This document shows positions 1-55,378 of a DNA stretch of 64,000 nt, in pieces. The stretch's first letter is position 1. The number at the start of each line of letters is the position of its first letter. The notes under the pieces are model-generated. The model saw nothing but the letters and a program-made list of their open reading frames with translations. It had not been told where the DNA came from and searched no databases. A program made the position numbers and the translations under genes. Source of the DNA: a virus. The stretch lies in IMG/VR virus record IMGVR_UViG_3300036818_000127, positions 1 through 64,000 of that record. One strand, given 5' to 3'.

Positions 1-10
1 AGCATGAATG

Positions 11-625
11 ATGCAACCATGACAGAGCAAGCAACACACATGTGGTACATTGCAGCATTGGAAAGCAACTAGAGGGGAAATAAGCAGCAGGTAAACGGAA
101 TAATAGATGCAACAATATCTGTAGGACAATGCAACTGAGCTTGTCGAACCTTGCAATAAACAGGATTTACTGTGCAACAGTGGACCATGCGACACAATAG
201 AAGGAGACTTCTAGAGCAACACAGACTGGCGATTCGATCAGTCAGTCACCAAGCAACACGAGAGGTTAGTTACCAAGCTTGCAGCTAGGATGGTCTAAAG
301 TATGCAATGCAACAAGATAGCGTGAGGGATAAGTGCTGCAATGATATACCAATAATGCAACAATGGGAAATGATTGGCTTGCAACTTTGATATGTTATCC
401 ACCAAATGCAACTTTGATCAGAGAGTACTTATCCTTAGCAACATATGAGCGGCAACCACAACACGTAATGAGACCACTTAGTCAGAAGGTAACACAGAGA
501 CAAGCACCATGCAACACAGAGGATGAAATGCAATGAGAGGCAAGTGAGGATACAACTGGCGATCCAAGGTAAGCAACAAAGATGCCTATAAGGAGTACTG
601 CAACGTCAGGAAGAAAAGGTGCAAC
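11..625 (+). repeat. Field of about 27 degenerate (A/T)GCAAC mini-repeats separated by unique 7-30 nt segments; runs off the window start
   Basis: atgcaac at 11, 107, 129, 307, 355, 406, 509, plus variants aagcaac, ttgcaac, gtgcaac, ttgcagc; no credible ORF. Confidence 0.85.
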
Positions 626-635
626 TACTGAAGTG

Positions 636-31361: not shown

Positions 31362-31427
31362 GGATTTTGAGCACAAAAATACCCACTTTCATTATATATT
31401 CTTTGAAAGTGGGTACTCATAATAATA

Positions 31428-32460
31428 GTTGCAAATTTAATCACAATGTCAAACTATTGAGTGACATTGGTGTGTGCTGCATCAATCCCCATAGATCAGG
31501 CTATTGCATCAATCCCTAGATGGCTGGCCCAACGTTGCATGTATCGCAGTTCATTCTTGGTTGCAATTCTCCCATATGGTTGTCTTGACAATATCTTCAA
31601 AGTTGCACTGGCCTTTTCGTGAGTATAGTTGCATCTTGATCACTAGTTTCATCGCATTCCTAACAGTTGCACTATGCTCCTGATATGCATTCATTGTTGC
31701 ATTGAAAGCATCAGGATGCTGCGGTGCTTTTCAAGGATAGCCGGTTGCCTAGTAGCATCCCATTGTTGCATGATGATAGCTATTAGTTACAGTTGCACTA
31801 TAGTTGAAACTTTCCCTGGATAGTTGCATTATCTATGCCTCCCTATAATGCTACAACTTCCCCTTATTTAGTTACATTGACGCTATGCTGTTGCATTGCA
31901 ATTCAGCCTATGGGTTGCATTGGTAGTCACTGGAAGATTACTAGGTTACATCAATAACTTAGATAGCTAGTTGCATTTCATGCTTCATTAGTTACACTTG
32001 CTTCCATTTCTACCCTTGTTGCATAAAAGGTATATGGTCGTATCTCTGTCGCATTTATTGTTGCATCCAAAACCATTATCAGTGTTGCATCCTGTGGTGA
32101 CTGTTGCATCCCACTAAGTCCTCTGCATGTTGCAGTCAATATTACCTTGTTGTTATTGTCACATTTGCAAGCTGCATTATCCCTAACAGGAGAGATTTTA
32201 TAGTGCTGCATGTCATTTCTGGTTGCATTATAGTTGCATGTACTACTTGCCTCCAGTTGCAGTTTCCCCTGGGTTATACTAGTTGCATTGTGTCACCTGA
32301 TGGGATTGTGTTGCATTAATCCCCTCAAGGGACTATCACGTCAAGAAACCCGTTGCAGTCTTGTGTTGCATAGAAAGGAGTAGCAGTCTGTATAGTTGCA
32401 GTATCCTCTAATTTCTGACAGTTGCATCAATCCCTAGTTGAGATTAGGATAGCATTGTTA
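31428..32460 (-). repeat. Field of about 40 degenerate (A)TGCAAC mini-repeats
   Basis: About 27 exact GTTGCA on the + strand in about 1 kb, plus variants; some extend to GTTGCATCAATCCC. Confidence 0.9.
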
Positions 32461-32461
32461 G

Positions 32462-32890
32462 GTTACAATTATGCCCTTTGCTAGTGCTGTTGCAATCATT
32501 GGGCTAGATAACTTTCACTAGAGGGATAGAGCAAAGTTACAATCATTCCCCTAGCAGCTAGATCTCGCAACCTGTTTACACCTTCACCGATTGCTGTCAG
32601 TCGCTCGCAGTTGCAATTATTCTTCCAGCAGCCAGCCATTGCAATGGAAGTACATTATATTGCAATTATTCCTCCAGCGGCCAGCCATTGCAATTAGAGA
32701 AGAATAAAGGAGATGAGATGGGAAACAGGTTGCAATCATCCCCCAGCGACTAGACCCTTGCAACATGAGTTAGATGAGGGTGAGCAGCTGGCCTGGGCTC
32801 GTTGCAATCATCCCCCCTGGCAACTATGCCATTGCAATCAGCATATTCTATATGATTTACAATATCATACCCATTGCAATCATTCCCCTA
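32462..32890 (-). CRISPR. Degenerate CRISPR-like array with 6 full 35-38 nt repeats and one half repeat; no cas genes in the window
   Basis: Repeats at 32462-32496, 32536-32571, 32610-32645, 32659-32694, 32729-32764, 32801-32838 and half 32873-32890; spacers 39, 38, 13, 34, 36, 34 nt; example GTTGCAATCATCCCCCAGCGACTAGACCCTTGCAAC (+). Confidence 0.75.
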
Positions 32891-33097
32891 TATATTTTAA
32901 AAGAGCCAGCCTCAAGGGAGCCACCGCGAAGCGAGTACCCGCTAGGGTTTTGTGGCGATGTTCCTGCCAGAAAGAGTCAAGTCCCCTATACCCCTAAGAG
33001 TAATCTTCGGATCATACGGCCATTCCCCAGCAGCTCGGCCTGTAACTACTGAAGCGAACTTCGACGAGCCGAGACAATCCGAAGATTGCAAAGCAGA
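32891..33097 (-). ncRNA. Structured leader / putative scaffold RNA next to the array
   Basis: Nested inverted repeats ATCTTCGGAT/ATCCGAAGAT, CTCGGC/GCCGAG, CCAC/GTGG; strand assumed from the operon. Confidence 0.45.
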
Positions 33098-33290
33098 TTA
33101 TAACACAGGTTTTCTGAGAAGTGTATCCCTTTTCTCCAATGCTTCCTTGAACATTTTCCATGCCCAACTCCGGCCAGATCCACGACTCCAGATGTCACAG
33201 GTATATGGCCTCCGGTCTCGAAGTATGGCCGTTACTCTATCGAAGTCTGCCTTCGTAAATTCGACGCATTCCTCAACATACTCATACTGC

Positions 33291-39466: not shown

Positions 39467-40319
39467 TAGGAACTCCTTGGTGGATCTCACTAAAAAGACG
39501 GCGGTAAATGACAATAATTGCCTTCGCATGGCTTACATTGTACTTTGACTGAAGAAGCGTGTCATGCCACTCACGAAGTCCGCTGTTGATTTGCAATGGA
39601 CTATTTGTTCGGTACCATTTCCCACATTTCCAGAACTCAGGGAAGGCGCGGATAGCTAATCCCTTCTGGACAGGGATGTGGATATCATAGGATTTGCAAG
39701 AAAGAAGAAAGTCTATGAGGTCAGGATTGCGAAAGGAATCATAGATCTGTACCCCACATGAAAGTGCTGTTTTTATACAACTTATATCTGAACCACCTTC
39801 CCAAGCAAGCCATTCACGCCGCTTCTGCGTAAACCATTCCTCCCCATGTTCCTTGATACCTACAGAAAAAAAGCGAGATACGCCCCATAAGTCATCAGCA
39901 TTCATTGCGAATGATGCATCACGGTACCCATCATTAAAAGCTGCTTCTGCAAGATAGAGGAATGGATGCGCACATTGTATATGTATTTTTCTGAGTCTAC
40001 AGACAATTGGCAGCACACGGCGAATATCGGCAATGAGTGTTTCCTCATTCTGAGGGATTGAGACAATCGTATGGGGGATATCAAAGTACTTGCAGACAGA
40101 TCGAGAGACCTTTGCATCACTACTCTCACGGTTCCCTACCTGGAAGGTATAGCAGTGTGGTGGCTTATATCCGAGCGAGAGAATACCAGCAAGGTTTGTC
40201 ATACTATCAGTTCCGCCGCTTAGCATCAGCGGCATAGACACATAGGGCTTGATTGCCTCTTGGAACAGAGATCGGAATGTCTGCGCCTGCTGCTCTTGCT
40301 GTCTGCTCACTGCTCGCAT
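39459..40319 (-). CDS. Asparagine-synthetase-like ATP-dependent amide ligase (synthetase domain only)
   Basis: LMLSGGTDS PP-loop and NADDLWG; no glutaminase domain. Confidence 0.75.
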   Translation of the reverse strand: MRAVSRQQEQQAQTFRSLFQEAIKPYVSMPLMLSGGTDSMTNLAGILSLGYKPPHCYTFQVGNRESSDAKVSRSVCKYFDIPHTIVSIPQNEETLIADIRRVLPIVCRLRKIHIQCAHPFLYLAEAAFNDGYRDASFAMNADDLWGVSRFFSVGIKEHGEEWFTQKRREWLAWEGGSDISCIKTALSCGVQIYDSFRNPDLIDFLLSCKSYDIHIPVQKGLAIRAFPEFWKCGKWYRTNSPLQINSGLREWHDTLLQSKYNVSHAKAIIVIYRRLFSEIHQGVPNA

Positions 40320-41749
40320 TGATCTAGTATCCTCTCCTGTATCGTCTTGGCTACCTTTTCCATCATCACAGGAGGCACTGCACGGCCAAGTCGCTCCCAT
40401 TGCTGTGAATAGGTCCCTGTCAGAATAAAATCATCTGGAAATGCACAGATCCTCTTCAGTTCAGCAATAGAAAATTTCCGCTTCTCAGTTGGATGGGTAA
40501 CGCCAGCAGCAGCAGCAGGTGACCATGCAGTGCCAGCAGTCTGGGTGACAGTAGGGCATGGGCCATCAAGGGGTGCTCGCTGTAGAGAGAAGTATTTTTG
40601 ACTCTGTTCTCCAGGCTTTAATTTATCCCATTCCCTGCCGATTGCAAACTTGCTAATATCAGATTCAGGCTCAACAATCTGTTCCTCTATCCAGTGTGTT
40701 CCTACTGATCCAGATAAAACTGTTGGGCTCGGCTGGTCAGTAATATCGCTGCCATTACCAAAGGCCCCGCGATCATCACGGATAGCACGGATAGGGACAT
40801 GCTGTTCCTCGATATACCATTGCTGCATTGTCGTCAAGGTCGGAGAGGGAGTATCTGTAATGTCCCCCTTGCTATATTGAGGTTGGCCTTTTGCATCATG
40901 GATCGCACGTACAGGAATAGCTTCAATAAGGCTAGAAGGGGAAAGCCCATTTCCAAATGCTGGACTTGCGCCAATAGTGCCGCTAGGTGAGGTGGATGTA
41001 TCTCTCCATCCCTCTGTCCCGAATACTGGTCCAGCGCCTTGTCTGATGATCCAGGGCAATGCCTCACGTACTGTATAGGTATAAGGAAGTGGAGCCGGAT
41101 GGGCTGGCCTTATCTTGTACTGCTCAACAAGATCATTTCTCACACCGACAAAGATAAGGCGTTGGCGCATCTGGGGGACACCGAGCCACTGCGCATCAAG
41201 GATCTTGGCCTCAACAGTATAGCCACATGATTTTAGTTCCTTCAGTATCTCTAGGAAGTAGCCTTTAGCTGTCCCCTTCACAAGCCCGCTCACATTCTCA
41301 GCAACAAATACCTTTGGCTGTAATCCCTTGAGAAGTCGTACATATTCAAAGAAGAGATCATCAACCCGCTGGCGCGTATCACTGTAATCCTTGACTTTGC
41401 CCCAGCTTGCCTCACGCTTTCCAGCAGTTGAGAATGATGCACAGGGAGGACTTCCTTCAAAGACATCAAGCTCACCCTGATTTAGATGTATAGCTTTTAA
41501 AATCTCATCTGGTTTTATTTTACGGATATCACGCGCATCAAGAATAGAATGAGGATGATTAGCTTTATAGGTATCTCGTGCTGCTGGTATAAATTCATTT
41601 GCCCAAAGAATACGGTACCCTGCAAGACGGAATCCAAGGCAACTTCCGCCACACCCTGAGAATGTACTTACAACATTACGGCCATTCCATGGTATTTGTT
41701 CTATTTCCCTCATTGAAGGGACTCTGTAAGGAGGCTTGTCTTTTATCAT
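40307..41749 (-). CDS. DNA cytosine-C5 transferase, probably a carboxymethyltransferase
   Basis: FSGCGG, GSPPC, ENV and QMRQR motifs; motif X reads GRAV instead of GNAV; ATGA overlap with the upstream gene. Confidence 0.9.
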   Translation of the reverse strand: MIKDKPPYRVPSMREIEQIPWNGRNVVSTFSGCGGSCLGFRLAGYRILWANEFIPAARDTYKANHPHSILDARDIRKIKPDEILKAIHLNQGELDVFEGSPPCASFSTAGKREASWGKVKDYSDTRQRVDDLFFEYVRLLKGLQPKVFVAENVSGLVKGTAKGYFLEILKELKSCGYTVEAKILDAQWLGVPQMRQRLIFVGVRNDLVEQYKIRPAHPAPLPYTYTVREALPWIIRQGAGPVFGTEGWRDTSTSPSGTIGASPAFGNGLSPSSLIEAIPVRAIHDAKGQPQYSKGDITDTPSPTLTTMQQWYIEEQHVPIRAIRDDRGAFGNGSDITDQPSPTVLSGSVGTHWIEEQIVEPESDISKFAIGREWDKLKPGEQSQKYFSLQRAPLDGPCPTVTQTAGTAWSPAAAAGVTHPTEKRKFSIAELKRICAFPDDFILTGTYSQQWERLGRAVPPVMMEKVAKTIQERILDQCEQ

Positions 41750-42342
41750 TTCGGCTTTCCAGACCATTGATAGCTGCATTTTGGGCAACAGTATTCTGTA
41801 TCGATACCTTCATCATAGCTCTTGAAATCATCTGGTGATTCCCTGCCATCATCCTCCTCATCTAGATAGGCATCCCCGAGCTTTTCTAACATCTGGCGGA
41901 GTGCTTCCCCGTCCGTCCCGAGACTTGCAAGATCAAACCCCGCCTGCTCCTGTTCCTCTAAGAGCTGGGCCAGGGACAATTCATCTGGTTCAGCTTTATT
42001 CCCTAAGTGATTGTCGCTAACCATATAGCCTTTGGCGTCTAATATGCTCCACTCTGGAGGTGCGATAACAACAGCCCAGCTATTGAGGTGAGCATACTTT
42101 GCAGGGTTTTCTGCATACAGTTCTTTTGCTGCCTCAGTGATTCCATGACCAGCAAGGATAATGTACTGTTCCTCGCCGACAGCCTGCTGGACGACAATGG
42201 GGCGCACCTGCTTGTACCTCATAAGTGAGGCTTTTAGGTCTGCAATTTGAGCAGGTGGATGTTGATTGTAGTTGGCCGGATGACCTTCAAGGCTATCAAG
42301 GGTTACTCTTTTGAATTGGACCTCATTGCTTGTTGCAGGCAT
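41746..42342 (-). CDS. ParB/Srx-like N-terminal domain protein with C-terminal Zn ribbon
   Basis: HPANYNQH..LKASL..PIVV..ILAGHG, SDN and CPKCSYQW. Confidence 0.8.
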   Translation of the reverse strand: MPATSNEVQFKRVTLDSLEGHPANYNQHPPAQIADLKASLMRYKQVRPIVVQQAVGEEQYIILAGHGITEAAKELYAENPAKYAHLNSWAVVIAPPEWSILDAKGYMVSDNHLGNKAEPDELSLAQLLEEQEQAGFDLASLGTDGEALRQMLEKLGDAYLDEEDDGRESPDDFKSYDEGIDTEYCCPKCSYQWSGKPK

Positions 42343-47369: not shown

Positions 47370-47762
47370 CTATTCATCTCCGTGATAATCAGTTTCGTTG
47401 TAACATTCATAAGCACTAGACAAGTCACGTTCCCATGCTGCCTCATTAGCATCTTTCATATCCGCCAATGATACAGGACTTTCTGCTAGTTGCTCTTCTA
47501 TTCTATGAGTCAGATAGCCCATGAGAGCGGAGTCTATATGAAAATCATGTTGACTTCCATGCAACTCATCGTCCTCGAAGTCCTCTGGGGAACCATTATA
47601 GTCATTATAACTCTTCATGAGGGCACGACGGTCTTCTAGGGCGGGCACCGATTTCGTCAGATCAAAATCATTGCAACCGTGATTACTAAAGCTATCTGAA
47701 GCAAGCTTTAGGAGTTCTATGAGAAGCTTCGCCTCAGCATCGGTAAGTGTAATGTTATGCAT
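47370..47762 (-). CDS. Hypothetical protein
   Basis: 130 aa, AGGAG RBS. Confidence 0.65.
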   Translation of the reverse strand: MHNITLTDAEAKLLIELLKLASDSFSNHGCNDFDLTKSVPALEDRRALMKSYNDYNGSPEDFEDDELHGSQHDFHIDSALMGYLTHRIEEQLAESPVSLADMKDANEAAWERDLSSAYECYNETDYHGDE

Positions 47763-47765
47763 TGC

Positions 47766-48002
47766 TTACTCCTGCCTCTCAAAAGACCCTGTTTCAACAA
47801 AGCTTTGGAGGTATGGCAAAAGTGCTGCAACCTGCTCTCGCGAAAAGTGGGTAAAGGGCGCATGGAGGCTAATGTTGTCCTCTTCTCTTATCGCACACCG
47901 TAAAGAGTCTTTTTGTGCAACTATAGTGAATTTCTCATTATAGTTGGCTATAAAGGAAATGTACTGATCCCCAGTGGGGGAAACGCCTGTTTCAATGTTC
48001 AC
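47766..48002 (-). CDS. Hypothetical protein
   Basis: 78-aa ORF. Confidence 0.55.
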   Translation of the reverse strand: MNIETGVSPTGDQYISFIANYNEKFTIVAQKDSLRCAIREEDNISLHAPFTHFSREQVAALLPYLQSFVETGSFERQE

Positions 48003-49384: not shown

Positions 49385-52300
49385 TTACCATAAATTGGTT
49401 TGAACGGCTGCTGCTACCTTTTTAGCTTTCCGTGTCCTCTTCAAGGCATCTCGCTTAGCCCTCAGAGCTGCCCAGGGGTCCTGAGTAAGTGCTACTGGTA
49501 TGATTATCATGGGCTCAACTGATCCCTTCAATGGCTCTGTGGTAATGTCTCCTGCAAGTGGTATCTCCATATCCTCCTGCTCAGGATCGGCATCGGCTGT
49601 GATGTATTCATTCCGTGCAAGGGCTGCTTCCTCAGATGCTTTGAATTGCCTCTGGAGTTCTTCGGCCTCGGCCATCAGGTCGGCTGTGTTATTTTTCCCG
49701 CTATCAAGGGCTTCCTTGACCTGTCGGGCAAGGGCAATTGAGAAGCTACTATCGCTGTCCCCTTCATCTACTCCAAAGGAGACAAGTCCCTCTCCTGGTA
49801 GCTGGCCCTCAACCATAAAGGCAGTTTCCATCTTCCGTGACATTAATAACAAGAGACGCTGCTCCATTGTCGGGTAGACTAATATGATGACCTTGGTGTG
49901 CTTTGTCTGCTTTGGTCTATGTATCCTTCTAAAGGATTGCCGCATCTGGGATGTCGATGTCGGGACCTCAGAACAGATAATCGTGTGGAAGTCTATTAGG
50001 TCGAGACCTACTTGGACCAGGGCGCTATTGCAGATAAGAACATTGCATCCGTTCTCGACATGCTTCTTGAGTACTGCTTCCCTTCCTAATGTATTACCTG
50101 ATCTCAGGATAGCAACCTGGGGGATGTTCCCATTGCGAGGGCGGACGTGAGTCTCTATCAGGGACTTATAGCGGGGCTGGATATCATGCTCCCCTGTATT
50201 TTCGCAGTAGATGATAACCTTTCTGTCCTGCTCCAGCTCCCCTTGGATAATGTCAATTATCCTTTGCTCTTTGGGATAGATCTCTGACTCATCGAGCTTC
50301 CTAGCCGTTCCAAGAATGTAGCCTGTCTTTTTGACTGAGCAGACAGTCTCTTCAAAGGGCATATTAGGGTAGCGCCTCAAACATTGGAACCAAGAACCTA
50401 ATGCCCTCTTATCCCCTAGTACTAGCATTGCAGCTAACTCAGCAGTGATTGTACTCTCAAACGATTTATATGCTTCTTCCAGGGGTCCCGACATTGGAAT
50501 GATGTCTACCTCTTCAGAGTAGGGAGGTAAGTACGGGGCCACATCTTTAAGCTCCAGGAAGGCAGATCGTTCAAACAAAGGCGGAAGGCCATTCGGTGAG
50601 AATGCGGCCATCTCATGTTCTTCTCCACGACCGCTGGACTTTTTCTTGCTTATAGCTCCATCTCCGCCGCTATCTAAGTCATCCTTCTTTTCCTTAATCA
50701 CAGTTTTTCTGGCTCCGTACCGATCAACCCATTCCCTCATGCCATCATAAGAGAATTGCTGGCGGACATCTGGATTAATACTCCAGGCGAAGGGGAATAA
50801 TGATGAGGCATACCCATTACATAAGGTCCCCGTTAGACCTAAGTAGGATTCGCATGCTCCCATCAGGGAACGTCGGGCAAAGTCGAGGGCTGTCCCCTCC
50901 TTCCCTTGGTGGATCTCATCGCTGATCAGGAGTTTGAAGAAACCTGAATGAAACTTTCTAATATAGTCGGCCACGCTGAACCGTCGAAAGCTGGTATCCT
51001 TGACAGTCTTAGGGAGACTTCCAAGGCTGTCTGGAAGAGGGAGGGCAACTACTGCATCGCCACTTCTCAATACTGACTTAGGCTCAAAGTCCTTCCCTGT
51101 CGTGTACTGCCATAAGGGACCACCGCAGGAACCGCACCATCTCTTTTTGTGCTTTTTAGCACTGATCCACAATTCTTGTTCAGTGACGTAAGCTCCTTCA
51201 TCCTCATCCATCTCTTCTTCTATTGAAGAGAGGGCTTTTCCATTTCGCTTCTTGCGTGCTATCTGATCCTTTTTTCTTTTGTAGTCAGGATTGCTTTTCA
51301 TTAAGCGATCAATGCGTGCCTGATCCTTTACAGGAGCAAAACAGCTCGGGCAGCATGGTGTCAATCTAGGAAGTTTCGTTTCCTCGTCATGCTGTACTGC
51401 CACCTTTCCATTCGCATCTAGTGTTCGCATTGGGGAAAGCCGATATGCCAACGTCCAGGCCATACTCAACTTGGCCGTCCCATTAGGGATAATGACTAGG
51501 TGACATGGCTTCTGAGGAAGTGGGCGACCATGCAATTTTGCTTCATCATATTGCTGCCGCCAGTCCTGGAGTTCATAGTCAATCCTTTTGATAACCCTCT
51601 CAATACATCCGACTGCCGACAGTTTCTCGCCTCTCCAGAATGGATCAAATTGCCTTAGCTCTCTTGACTTCTCAGGAGTATCAATTCTCTGAACAACAAT
51701 CGCATGGACATTTGGGATAGTATCCTCTGCCTCGCGTTTCCATTTGTACGCGATGATCTCTGGGACCATCACGACAGCTGGGGAAAGCTCAATCTTCTTA
51801 GCTGTTGAGGGAAGCATGTCAGCACAGCCATTCAGGTCCATATCCCCTAAGAAGAGGGTGGATAGGGATAAGTAGGTCTTGCCAGTCGCCATCTCGGCGA
51901 TCTCACCGACCCTATTCATAGGAGCATGATCTTTCCCTCCGACCATTGCATTCACAATAGCAAGGATAAAGCCTTTCTGTCTACCGAGCGGTTGACGTAG
52001 CATCCGAGAGAAGGCGGCGTTGGCCCAGGGGACTTGAGACGGGCTGTGATAGAGCGGGGGATTGCTCTCTAACAGCTTCTCTGTTAGGGCTCCACCAAAG
52101 TTATCCAGGAAGGAACGAAGAGACATTGTTTCATGGGGAATGCTGAGCATCCCGACCATTGGCCCTGTTTCAATCCTGATAAGCTGACCGAGGGTATCAC
52201 CTTCTGTCATATCGATACACCAGAGGGATGACTCGAAGCTATCACGTTTCTCTGTGATGATATTCTCTTCATCTTCAGAGACCTTGGTCACTTTGCGCTT

Positions 52301-53383
52301 TCTTGAGAAGCCCTTTACAACTACTGTACGGCCATCTTTACCTACAAGATAGGCCCCATTGACTATTCCAGCAGCAGCCATGATGGCCCGATGCCCATCT
52401 TTAAGTGGCTGGACGGGCCGACCAGAGGCATTGCCTCTATCTTGATCAGACGGCCAGTGAAGAGCCTTATATTGCAGTTTGCTATAGACCCCATTCGCTG
52501 GAAGGCTAGCACCCTGCGGAACTGCAAGGAGTGCAGCAGCCTCTTCTGGATCGAACCTGCTCGGAGACCAATACTTGATAGCAGATCTTGCTATGGGGAT
52601 AGAATACTGTCCATATCCATCACTCCGTGAAGTCACAGCCTCGATGGGTGAAATGTCATCATGGGGGTTATCTGTTGTGCCAAGCTCAATGAGGACTTTC
52701 TCTGTAGACCGATCTGATCGCTGGCCGAATCCCTTCTGGGCAATCACGACGACCTGATCAAACATCTCAAACATGGGGACAGGCTTCTCTTTGTTCTCTA
52801 CCATCTCAGGCGTGGCAAAGGGAGTATCAGGGAACCGCAGCACCTTGATGTCGGTGTACCACTGAGAAAGATATGATGCCCCTTTCTCAACGATCCATTG
52901 TGGGACAATCCAAATCAGGACCCCGCCAGGACATAATTTCTTCGTAGTTCGTCTGAGGAAAGTCAATTCTAGCCGCTCGCCGCCGGACTCTTTGTCCCAA
53001 TCATATGGCGGGTTTACGAATGCCAACTGGAACCCGCCATCAAGAGAGTCCCCGCTAGAGATAAGAGACTGGAAGAATGATGCATGCAGGACATCATCTA
53101 GAACTTTCCTCGCAGCCTTTACCCGCGAGATATTGGGCTCGATGCCATGGGTGAGGACTTGAGGGAATGTGTGACAGTAGTGCCACATCTGCTGAATGTG
53201 CTCTCTGTATTCCTTGGCGAGAAGTTCTAAGGCTCTCCCCTTGCCTGCACATGGATCAAGAAACCTCATCTCTTGAGCATCCCCTGATGGGTAGCGGCAA
53301 CTGAGGTATTGAGCTATCATCGATATAACTGGCTCAGGGGTTGGGTAGTACAACCCTTTGACCTGTGATTCTGTCCTAGGCAT
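49385..53383 (-). CDS. Amino-methyltransferase plus SF2 (SNF2-like) helicase fusion
   Basis: YYPTP, LDPCAGKG and NPPY; AEMATGKT, DEIH, LTGT, VGLDL and RRIHRP. Confidence 0.85.
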   Translation of the reverse strand: MPRTESQVKGLYYPTPEPVISMIAQYLSCRYPSGDAQEMRFLDPCAGKGRALELLAKEYREHIQQMWHYCHTFPQVLTHGIEPNISRVKAARKVLDDVLHASFFQSLISSGDSLDGGFQLAFVNPPYDWDKESGGERLELTFLRRTTKKLCPGGVLIWIVPQWIVEKGASYLSQWYTDIKVLRFPDTPFATPEMVENKEKPVPMFEMFDQVVVIAQKGFGQRSDRSTEKVLIELGTTDNPHDDISPIEAVTSRSDGYGQYSIPIARSAIKYWSPSRFDPEEAAALLAVPQGASLPANGVYSKLQYKALHWPSDQDRGNASGRPVQPLKDGHRAIMAAAGIVNGAYLVGKDGRTVVVKGFSRKRKVTKVSEDEENIITEKRDSFESSLWCIDMTEGDTLGQLIRIETGPMVGMLSIPHETMSLRSFLDNFGGALTEKLLESNPPLYHSPSQVPWANAAFSRMLRQPLGRQKGFILAIVNAMVGGKDHAPMNRVGEIAEMATGKTYLSLSTLFLGDMDLNGCADMLPSTAKKIELSPAVVMVPEIIAYKWKREAEDTIPNVHAIVVQRIDTPEKSRELRQFDPFWRGEKLSAVGCIERVIKRIDYELQDWRQQYDEAKLHGRPLPQKPCHLVIIPNGTAKLSMAWTLAYRLSPMRTLDANGKVAVQHDEETKLPRLTPCCPSCFAPVKDQARIDRLMKSNPDYKRKKDQIARKKRNGKALSSIEEEMDEDEGAYVTEQELWISAKKHKKRWCGSCGGPLWQYTTGKDFEPKSVLRSGDAVVALPLPDSLGSLPKTVKDTSFRRFSVADYIRKFHSGFFKLLISDEIHQGKEGTALDFARRSLMGACESYLGLTGTLCNGYASSLFPFAWSINPDVRQQFSYDGMREWVDRYGARKTVIKEKKDDLDSGGDGAISKKKSSGRGEEHEMAAFSPNGLPPLFERSAFLELKDVAPYLPPYSEEVDIIPMSGPLEEAYKSFESTITAELAAMLVLGDKRALGSWFQCLRRYPNMPFEETVCSVKKTGYILGTARKLDESEIYPKEQRIIDIIQGELEQDRKVIIYCENTGEHDIQPRYKSLIETHVRPRNGNIPQVAILRSGNTLGREAVLKKHVENGCNVLICNSALVQVGLDLIDFHTIICSEVPTSTSQMRQSFRRIHRPKQTKHTKVIILVYPTMEQRLLLLMSRKMETAFMVEGQLPGEGLVSFGVDEGDSDSSFSIALARQVKEALDSGKNNTADLMAEAEELQRQFKASEEAALARNEYITADADPEQEDMEIPLAGDITTEPLKGSVEPMIIIPVALTQDPWAALRAKRDALKRTRKAKKVAAAVQTNLW

Positions 53384-54736: not shown

Positions 54737-55378
54737 TTAAGCCCCTTTACGGTTCGCTTGCACTCTCTTATTTAGTTCCGCTATAAGCTTTACCATATCC
54801 CCAAAAGACAATCCTTCTAAATCAACATCAGGTAAATTAAGCATCTGATGCAGCTTTTTTACGCTCGCAATCTGTTGAACCGTAGCTGGTGCTTCTGGAT
54901 CATAGGAGGGCTTGCGTTCTTGACGTTGAACAGGAGCATCGGCCAGCCGCTCGCCTTCCTCTAACTCATCGCCGCAAAACTGAGTTCCATAGCCTAGCCC
55001 GACTAGAGCCCTGCCGATGGCACCTGTCTCTGCCTTCTCTAGGTAGTCAGGGAAGCAGGCCGCATTCTCGGTTTTAGTGCCTGTTGAGCTACCTCCCTTG
55101 CCGTCGGTAACTATTGCCCTAAAGACTGCAACTCCACGGGCTTTCTTGATAACCTTGTCATAGCGGCGCTTCTCATCATTCCAGACACTAACCTCAGTCT
55201 CACACTCTTCCGAGCGATTGAGATCGAGTAACTCAGTCGTGATTGTGCCCTCTGGACATTGCTCTCTAAACCATACCAATCGCCACGCAACGGGGAGGTA
55301 GTCCTTGGGTCCCTGCTGAGACTTGAGCTGAATGATATGAGAATTAGGGTTGAACACTTTATCAATGGTAGTATTCAT
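54737..55378 (-). CDS. Rad52/Sak-like single-strand annealing protein
   Basis: YLPVAWRLVWFR and EKAETGAIGRAL motifs. Confidence 0.75.
   Translation of the reverse strand: MNTTIDKVFNPNSHIIQLKSQQGPKDYLPVAWRLVWFREQCPEGTITTELLDLNRSEECETEVSVWNDEKRRYDKVIKKARGVAVFRAIVTDGKGGSSTGTKTENAACFPDYLEKAETGAIGRALVGLGYGTQFCGDELEEGERLADAPVQRQERKPSYDPEAPATVQQIASVKKLHQMLNLPDVDLEGLSFGDMVKLIAELNKRVQANRKGA

Follow-up and report, generated by a model that had tools for sequence, protein, structure and literature searches.

Some 43 mini-repeats in a soil phage array are candidate compact guides of a phage-encoded Cas12f-like system

What is a stretch of phage DNA in which nothing but the end of a CRISPR-like repeat recurs, dozens of times and on one strand? 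The question is raised by the first 64,000 nt (the window) of IMG/VR record IMGVR_UViG_3300036818_000127, a complete circular phage record from soil (109,417 bp, 127-bp terminal overlap) in which terminase and portal protein genes are present. An earlier reading of these letters (the original prediction) had noticed the element, here called array 1, and had taken it for a compressed guide array or a decoy. We find that the feature is real, strongly non-random and conserved, and that it is part of a phage-encoded Cas12f-like system. On balance we favour the view that the mini-units of array 1 are compact guides, loaded through a short-repeat pseudoknot into the phage's own effector, which would probably bind DNA without cutting it.

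Direct reading agrees with the prediction that a CRISPR-like unit lies on the minus strand and opens with a structured leader and a half repeat. Window positions 31372-33102 form one non-coding unit on that strand, whose parts are as follows:

33097-33102, minus strand: -10 box TATAAT preceded by TGT (extended -10), by direct reading
~32897-33090, minus strand: structured leader of ~194 nt, a putative scaffold resembling trans-activating CRISPR RNA (tracrRNA) or omegaRNA (leader alignment, covariance model)
33041-33046, minus strand: putative short anti-repeat GUUACA, in an unpaired internal loop of the leader
32873-32888, minus strand: half repeat (the 3' part of the repeat), 16 nt, directly after the scaffold, by direct reading
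32839-32872, minus strand: 34-nt spacer following the half repeat, by direct reading
32489-32838, minus strand: CRISPR-like head of five 36-38-nt repeats and a 13-nt truncated repeat, by direct reading
32801-32838 (R1), 32729-32764 (R2), 32659-32694 (R3), 32610-32645 (R4) and 32536-32571 (R5), minus strand: full repeats
32489-32501, minus strand: truncated 13-nt repeat
31428-32488, minus strand: mini-repeat field, ~43 units ending in (A)TGCAAC or a one-mismatch variant, with unique sequence between them
31372-31414, minus strand: probable intrinsic terminator with an 11-bp stem, a 12-nt loop and a T-rich tail, by direct reading

Where six repeats of 35-38 nt had been counted, the CRISPR-like head is real but holds five full ones (36-38 nt) plus partial repeats. 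Full repeats typically begin with (G/A)TTGCAA and end with ATTGCAAC (GTTGCAA...ATTGCAAC), and the spacers measure, in order, 34, 36, 34, 13, 38 and 34 nt. Judged as a canonical CRISPR array (repeats of 23-50 nt, spacers of similar size), the head at 32489-32838 qualifies and the field at 31428-32488, with its 6-7-nt repeat and 0-42 nt between motifs, does not. The -10 site at 33097-33102 was not listed by a consensus promoter scan because it has no good -35 box; a sister array in the same genome (array 2) and the metagenome loci described below carry a consensus promoter, TTGACA-17-TATACT, at the equivalent place. Similarly, the terminator scan did not list 31372-31414 because the loop exceeds the limit of the scan.

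The claim that about 1 kb retains only the repeat 3' end, in about 40 mini-units, is borne out by the composition of the field: we count ~43 units, and a position matrix carries information at aATGCAAC only, with none in the flanks. Within this ~1.06 kb (31428-32488) TGCAAC occurs 27 times exactly and 44 times with at most one mismatch, against 5.2 (standard deviation 2.2) in composition-matched shuffles. Over the whole window there are 31 copies of ATGCAAC where 10.8 are expected, a number reached by 0 of 100 shuffles. A single orientation persists, as had been noticed (GCAAC 29, GTTGC 0 in 31421-32500). Variants such as TGTAAC, TGCAGC and TGCAAT are common among the motifs, and longer repeat remnants such as GGGATTGATGCAAC are kept. 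The inter-motif length has a median of 18.5 nt (interquartile range 11-24, range 0-42); owing to this irregularity of the units, Tandem Repeats Finder gave no report in the array 1 region. In foldability the fields do not differ from shuffles.

Array 1 does not stand alone. The original prediction had called it Cas-less, which is true locally; elsewhere in the genome, however, stands a gene for the phage's own Cas12f-like effector, and next to it a sister array whose leader is homologous:

Genome 105024-106715, outside the window: gene of a 563-aa Cas12f-like effector, the sole TnpB/Cas12-type gene in the genome (Pfam, PADLOC, fold)
Window 1-630, plus strand: tail of array 2, whose start adjoins the effector gene at genome 106828

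Array 2, on the plus strand, starts at genome position 106828, passes over the circular junction and extends as far as window position 630. Exact TGCAAC numbers 52 there, and 105 sites match it with one mismatch at most, against 12.5 in shuffles. The unit count is ~103; with the ~43 units of array 1 this makes ~150 candidate guides. The effector gene lies ~36 kb from array 1 on the circular genome and adjoins array 2, divergently upstream of it. Cas1 was not found in the phage genome.

The same layout recurs in five soil-metagenome contigs (L002-L005 and L008) from two further lineages, whose effectors are 66-70% identical to that of the phage. Each has the consensus promoter, the scaffold and then 47-70 units (GCAAC/GCAAT sites) ending in (A)TGCAAC, and in L003, L004 and L008 seven canonical 37-nt repeats precede the mini-units. 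Polarity is equally strict, with GCAAC:GTTGC ratios per field of 29:0 (array 1) and 72:1, and of 38:1 and 54:1 in metagenome contigs. As the same architecture appears in independent metagenome assemblies, it is not an assembly artefact. Effector homologues are detectable in ~29 cases, several of them named from Ktedonobacteria metagenome-assembled genomes. A search for related loci of the effector in viral and genome contigs gave no relative, and 151 sampled genomes of one Chloroflexota class gave generic TnpB matches only, except for one bacterial locus (L128) described below.

One could see in the field an eroded tail, that is, old leader-distal CRISPR remains which yield no guides and in which the motif survives incidentally, for example by gene conversion from functional repeats. 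Full repeats do lie close to the leader and degenerate ones far from it, as in ordinary arrays; the units are irregular and many are very short, motif variants are common, the fields cannot be aligned between loci, and phage BLAST and viral-contig scans found no external targets. Neutral decay, however, would not leave 27-52 exact 6-mers in 1-2.5 kb with their complement lacking, given that the full repeat has both orientations. Moreover, the state is kept in three lineages with effectors only 66-70% identical, and at 34% identity there is a similar array of shortened repeats, whose motif is another one and covaries. Conversion explains little, since the mini-repeat consensus aATGCAAC is unlike the end of the adjacent full repeats (ATTGCAAC), and a few units are conserved far above their flanks. 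We consider erosion unlikely.

We then asked what the conserved motif could pair with. Five distinct leaders (array 1, array 2, L003, L004 and L005) were aligned; of the 49 pairs in their consensus fold, 26 show compensatory changes. The covariance model made from this alignment recovers the seven close copies and nothing else (E 1e-40 to 1e-55), the array 1 leader scoring 144.8 bits (E 2e-40), and Rfam has no match to the leader either at the gathering threshold or at E 1. An invariant leader segment, GUAGUUGCA (GUAGUUACA in array 1), is unpaired and sits in an internal loop of the consensus fold. It contains GUUGCA in array 2 and in all metagenome leaders, the exact complement of UGCAAC; array 1 has GUUACA, and its anti-repeat site is complementary to the mini-repeat UG(C/U)AAC. 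We take the leader to be a tracrRNA-like scaffold, to judge from its predicted fold and pairing, and a paralogue of the scaffold beside the effector gene.

More distant relatives carry other motifs. L009 (28% identity, RuvC motifs intact) has a canonical array, regular as far as the contig reaches, whose repeats end in CUGUGAC; between its gene and the array lies a hairpin with CUAGUCACAG in the loop. L128, from bacterial genome G129, has two tandem scaffold-plus-guide cassettes (L128:3135-3700) located 3' of a full-length effector homologue, and in each of them a scaffold with a GUCACA loop ends in GACUGUGAC, with the guide directly after. In L006 and L007 (34% identity) the scaffolds share blocks with the array 1 leader and carry GUACCCUCAC at the homologous place, and the repeats end in AUGAGGG. 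The array of L007 is itself irregular, with units of 16-95 nt that keep only the 3' part of the repeat (TGAGG 15:0). The pairs of anti-repeat and repeat end are therefore, by direct comparison, GUUGCA with UGCAAC, GUCACA with UGUGAC (L009, L128) and CCCUCA with UGAGGG (L006, L007): 4 of the 6 paired positions change in step across three lineages. The covariance model of the five close scaffolds did not reach these distant ones, so that their homology rests on MAFFT alignment and direct reading. All five close scaffolds have a putative tracrRNA-type anti-repeat, complementary to the last 5-7 repeat nt, and in L009/L128 and in L006/L007 it covaries. This covariation is the strongest evidence that the motif would work by pairing with the scaffold. 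A scan for the scaffold-core pattern gave 13 hits in viral contigs and 96 in genome contigs, which look like chance and none of which has a GCAAC field.

These observations also bear on the idea that the fields act as DNA, the oriented 6-mers binding a partition, packaging or replication protein. The two fields are mutually inverted in the circular genome and flank the virion module on both sides, and helix-turn-helix (HTH) proteins are encoded near the effector. Each field, however, lies between a promoter with a conserved structured RNA and a terminator or convergent gene; the motif is the 3' end of a CRISPR repeat, complementary to a leader loop and covarying in relatives; and regular spacing is absent. 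We regard this explanation as very improbable.

The effector itself was characterized by profile and fold searches. Pfam recognises a Cas12f1-like TNB domain (PF07282, E 1.6e-8, above the cut-off) and PADLOC calls Cas12f (E 1.6e-21) for residues 323-520 only, while the NCBIfam scores stay below their cut-offs (Cas12f2, 69 bits vs 450; guided_TnpB, 71 vs 100). Membership of type V-F is not supported at the sequence level: matches are confined to residues 318-531, and the N-terminal 315 residues hit no profile. The AlphaFold model (predicted local distance difference test score, pLDDT, 84.5) has AsCas12f, CasX, Un1Cas12f1 and TnpB as its top structural matches, and the fold matches AsCas12f, CasX and Un1Cas12f1 over the whole length; LaTranC comes at rank 44 in the same search. 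The protein does have the marks of a type V effector, being a single effector with a split RuvC and a TNB/zinc-ribbon region, associated with an array. The original prediction had compared the motif with the 8-nt handle of class 1 CRISPR RNAs. This reading was rejected because the effector is of class 2, type V, with the guide 3' of the repeat; the comparison is not relevant, and the motif matches instead the short repeat/anti-repeat pseudoknot element of type V.

The RuvC site is altered. The family consensus of RuvC-III is HADxQAGxNIA. The loci with TGCAAC fields, P0001-P0004 and L002-L004, have G or Y in place of its Asp; in homologues P0005-P0020 the HAD motif is intact. The phage effector lacks an intact D-E-D triad, D346, E432 and both CxxC pairs being retained. 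Because the effector clade has lost the canonical third RuvC aspartate, the complex probably binds or blocks DNA rather than cutting it. A different residue is lost in L006 and L007, which have Asn for the RuvC-I Asp. Two impaired branches, set against one locus with an intact site, suggest that RuvC impairment may be tied to arrays with shortened repeats.

How might such a system work? We propose that the phage encodes a miniature type V (Cas12f/TnpB-like) system with two guide-RNA transcription units, and that array 1 is one of them. The transcript would run from the tracrRNA-like scaffold through a few full repeats to the ~43 mini-units. (A)UGCAAC would be the 'short repeat', the last repeat nucleotides just 5' of the guide, and would pair with GUUGCA in the scaffold loop to form a Cas12f-type pseudoknot. 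Each unit would then supply a guide of ~13-21 nt to the 563-aa effector, with the scaffold acting in trans, or in cis for the first unit, and with guide ends set by host RNases. Since no Cas1-Cas2 is present to impose the full repeat, selection would retain only the part of it that is needed for loading. The targets are probably related phages, perhaps the host. The prediction of a compressed guide array thus remains the best reading, and the borrowed host effector that went with it is not needed because the phage encodes its own.

That short repeats can serve in this way has a precedent in the literature. Guides of tracrRNA-dependent type V systems contain a short repeat/anti-repeat pseudoknot element. 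The guide scaffold of Un1Cas12f1 ends in GGAATGCAAC, followed by the guide, and an engineered version retains only those 10 repeat nt (bioRxiv 10.1101/2022.10.20.513037); the original prediction was right that Cas12f-type repeats end in ATGCAAC. By analogy, the mini-repeat appears to be the same element, nearly letter for letter, as that portion of the Cas12f repeat which engineering showed to suffice when linked to the scaffold. That it would also suffice unlinked, in trans, is something we infer, with the scoutRNA of Cas12d as precedent.

If the segments between motifs are guides, they should bear some trace of it. Their lengths centre on 13-21 nt. Array 1 and L003 share an identical 21-nt stretch (the motif plus 15 nt), and array 2 and L003 have three units in common in the same order, the arrays being otherwise unalignable. 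Like spacer sets, the fields show quicker turnover than the genes that flank them, and the few shared units are conserved far above flanking sequence. Two cases of resemblance to genes of the phage itself were seen, the first of them in a canonical spacer:

32765-32800, minus strand: spacer 1, of whose 36 positions 29 agree with gene 54737-55378 (minus strand) of the phage itself (Hamming scan)
54934-54969, plus strand: own-genome sequence resembling spacer 1, a mismatched self copy of the presumed target

The best score of spacer 1 in the Hamming scan was 29, and shuffles reached a mean of 22.5 and a maximum of 24. Of its seven differences from the gene, four fall at codon position 3, and the gene segment in question codes for a motif that is conserved among more than 3000 homologues from soil, of which many come from Ktedonobacteria; viral contigs searched for the 213-aa target-like protein yielded no relative. 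The simplest reading of these alignments is that spacer 1 was taken from a related phage and that the phage's own copy would be protected by its mismatches. Rival phages become likely targets because one spacer resembles a conserved phage gene. The second case is an array 2 unit, bounded by two motif variants, which matches at 22 of 23 positions (window 51024-51046, plus strand) an open reading frame at 49385-53383 (minus strand; 1332 aa) with DUF6094 methyltransferase and helicase C-terminal domains.

The same data can be weighed against a reading in which the field is an RNA sponge or regulator. Its UGCAAC sites would titrate the phage's own scaffold or effector (for buffering, or against self-targeting), or else a host Cas12f-type tracrRNA or effector, as an RNA anti-CRISPR. 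That information lies in the motif alone and not in the flanks would suit a sponge, as would the high copy number, irregular spacing and strict polarity, which are like those of multi-site sponge RNAs. RNA anti-CRISPRs that mimic repeats are a recognised idea, and two 2026 preprints deal with phage RNAs that mimic Cas9 guide RNAs. On the other hand, the phage has its own genes for the matching effector and scaffold; the lengths between motifs gather at 13-21 nt, the size of guide that proteins of this family use; and identical or near-identical inter-motif sequences are common to different phages, one unit matching a phage gene between its motifs. The decoy proposed in the original prediction is the less probable for two reasons: the anti-repeat of the scaffold changes together with the end of the repeat, and a few units show conservation or matches to phage genes. 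We consider a sponge improbable, a little more so than an eroded tail.

Several points weigh against the compact guides that we favour. Transcription, processing and loading of array 1 are all things that we infer. A 6-bp duplex alone is a weak tether, and the GUUACA of the array 1 scaffold does not fully complement the majority of units in its own array. In array 1, roughly one inter-motif segment in four falls below 12 nt, many segments being too short to guide, and their lengths (0-42 nt) are far less regular than in any array built by an integrase. The viral spacer matches that the original prediction had proposed to look for did not materialise: BLAST of array 1 against 50,697 phage records gave chance-level matches only, four canonical spacers had 0 matches when viral contigs were scanned for exact 22-nt identity, and no targets outside the own genome were found by either route. 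Taken as a set against the own genome, the mini-spacers have an average excess of ~0.3 matches per spacer, with outliers no more frequent than chance, and exact matches are not in excess. As for binding without cutting, loss of a single RuvC residue is no proof of inactivity, and the authors who described TldR (TnpB-like nuclease-dead repressors) noted that some cases of single-residue loss looked intact in structure predictions. An Asp does lie two residues upstream of the lost RuvC-III Asp in the phage effector; such a near-site Asp is not kept in register across the clade, and P0004 has none near.

To place the system, we compared it with those already described. It resembles type V-F Cas12f (Cas14a/Un1Cas12f1, AsCas12f) in its small, whole-length Cas12f fold and lack of adaptation genes, in its repeats (those of Un1Cas12f1 begin with GTTGCA and end with ATGCAAC) and in a long structured tracr-type RNA whose short anti-repeat is complementary to the last repeat nucleotides. 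Unlike type V-F, the phage effector scores far below the family cut-offs and lacks the third RuvC Asp, the scaffold would be transcribed as the 5' leader of the array, and most units keep 6-7 repeat nt. Intermediates between TnpB and Cas12 (TranC, V-U*, 'Sigma-TnpB'; PMC10691335) are also alike in having TnpB-derived effectors, scaffold RNAs and small arrays, often on phages without Cas1. Altae-Tran et al. 2023 (PMC10691335) describe a Cas12f-derived clade that lost RuvC-III and had half a direct repeat fused to the tracrRNA, a path that the head of array 1 resembles, and the tandem scaffold-plus-guide cassettes of L128 likewise recall TranC/V-U* relatives; this likeness is drawn from the published descriptions. 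The arrays described for TranC/V-U* differ in having repeats of 32-38 bp or more than 60 bp and 3-20 repeats, or a single guide, compared with ~43 and ~103 units of 6-7 nt here.

Two further families offer partial parallels. Cas12c/d systems with a scoutRNA join guide and accessory RNA by a few base pairs and use short spacers (17-19 nt in Cas12d; dKbCas12d), but they have an effector of another family, full-length regular repeats and Cas1. The scoutRNA paper is reportedly that of Harrington in 2020. TldRs are TnpB-family proteins with a deteriorated RuvC site, sometimes encoded by prophages, that act as repressors with guides of 9-16 nt, the guide ends being set by RNase protection. They differ in having a single adjacent guide RNA and often no zinc finger, where the phage effector keeps both CxxC pairs, has lost one catalytic residue and has ~150 candidate guides. 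RNA anti-CRISPRs and solitary repeat units are phage RNAs built from CRISPR repeat sequence too; those mimic a host repeat to poison host Cas and have no cognate effector of their own, whereas here the phage carries both cognate partners, effector and scaffold.

Type V systems that derive from TnpB, reside on phages and have scaffold RNAs but no adaptation genes are already recognised. Arrays with a 6-7-nt repeat running to 40-100 units were not found described in the literature searched. A bolder reading, which we offer tentatively and with somewhat less than even confidence, is that the fields are ultra-compact multiplex arrays of ~150 short guides for cleavage-free binding or silencing of rival-phage or host DNA. 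The shrinkage of the repeat would then be the selected end state of arrays free of Cas1-Cas2, reached along parallel lines by two branches, each with the loss of a different RuvC residue. Should the mini-units be loaded as guides, they would be a natural minimal CRISPR RNA for a Cas12f-type enzyme: 6-7 repeat nt would suffice given a trans-acting scaffold, and 2.5 kb would have room for over 100 guides. This would bear on the evolution of CRISPR arrays after the repeat is freed from the demands of integration, on how TnpB-derived systems shift among omegaRNA, CRISPR and regulator states, and on the use that phages make of nuclease-impaired RNA-guided proteins; in practice, it could point to very dense multiplex guide arrays for miniature editors or repressors. 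A sponge, should the field turn out to be one, would represent a new type of RNA, self-regulating or anti-CRISPR.

The genome holds two further arrays at 81.8-83.0 kb (genome 81815-82080 and 82800-83000, minus strand; L010:815-2000). One is canonical, with four 37-nt repeats ending in ACTGCAAT, 37-nt spacers and a terminator of its own. The second, ~700 bp from it, has repeats cut to about the 3' 22 nt, ending in ACTGCAAC. Together with arrays 1 and 2, this pair makes a graded series of repeat lengths inside one genome. Several copies of (T)GTTGCAT(T), in the anti-repeat orientation, stand between scaffold and field in array 2 (genome 107142-107450; L001:7143-7450), L003 and L005, and are absent from array 1.

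The surroundings of the arrays and effector genes were also inspected. The genes 3' of array 1 and array 2 are mutually unrelated and have no defence-like domains. Two small genes lie just 3' of the effector gene (L001:4686-5012 and L001:4086-4376, both minus strand). One encodes an OmpR/PhoB-type winged helix (Trans_reg_C, E 1e-5, at the cut-off) and the other an HTH_17 protein. The HTH_17 gene is kept in L003 and L004; the winged-helix gene is not conserved in either, and for that reason we do not claim it as a component of the system. In L003 a classical TnpB frame (IS605 OrfB-type; L003:900-1330, minus strand) starts directly after the end of the mini-repeat field, and in L128 the gene of the effector homologue is flanked and interrupted by purine-rich repeats of the GGGGAAA type. 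Elsewhere in the window, four TGCAAC on one strand fall within 360 nt at 47560-47921 (plus strand), inside minus-strand reading frames, and may be there by chance; a C5 cytosine methyltransferase gene is found at 40307-41788 (minus strand).

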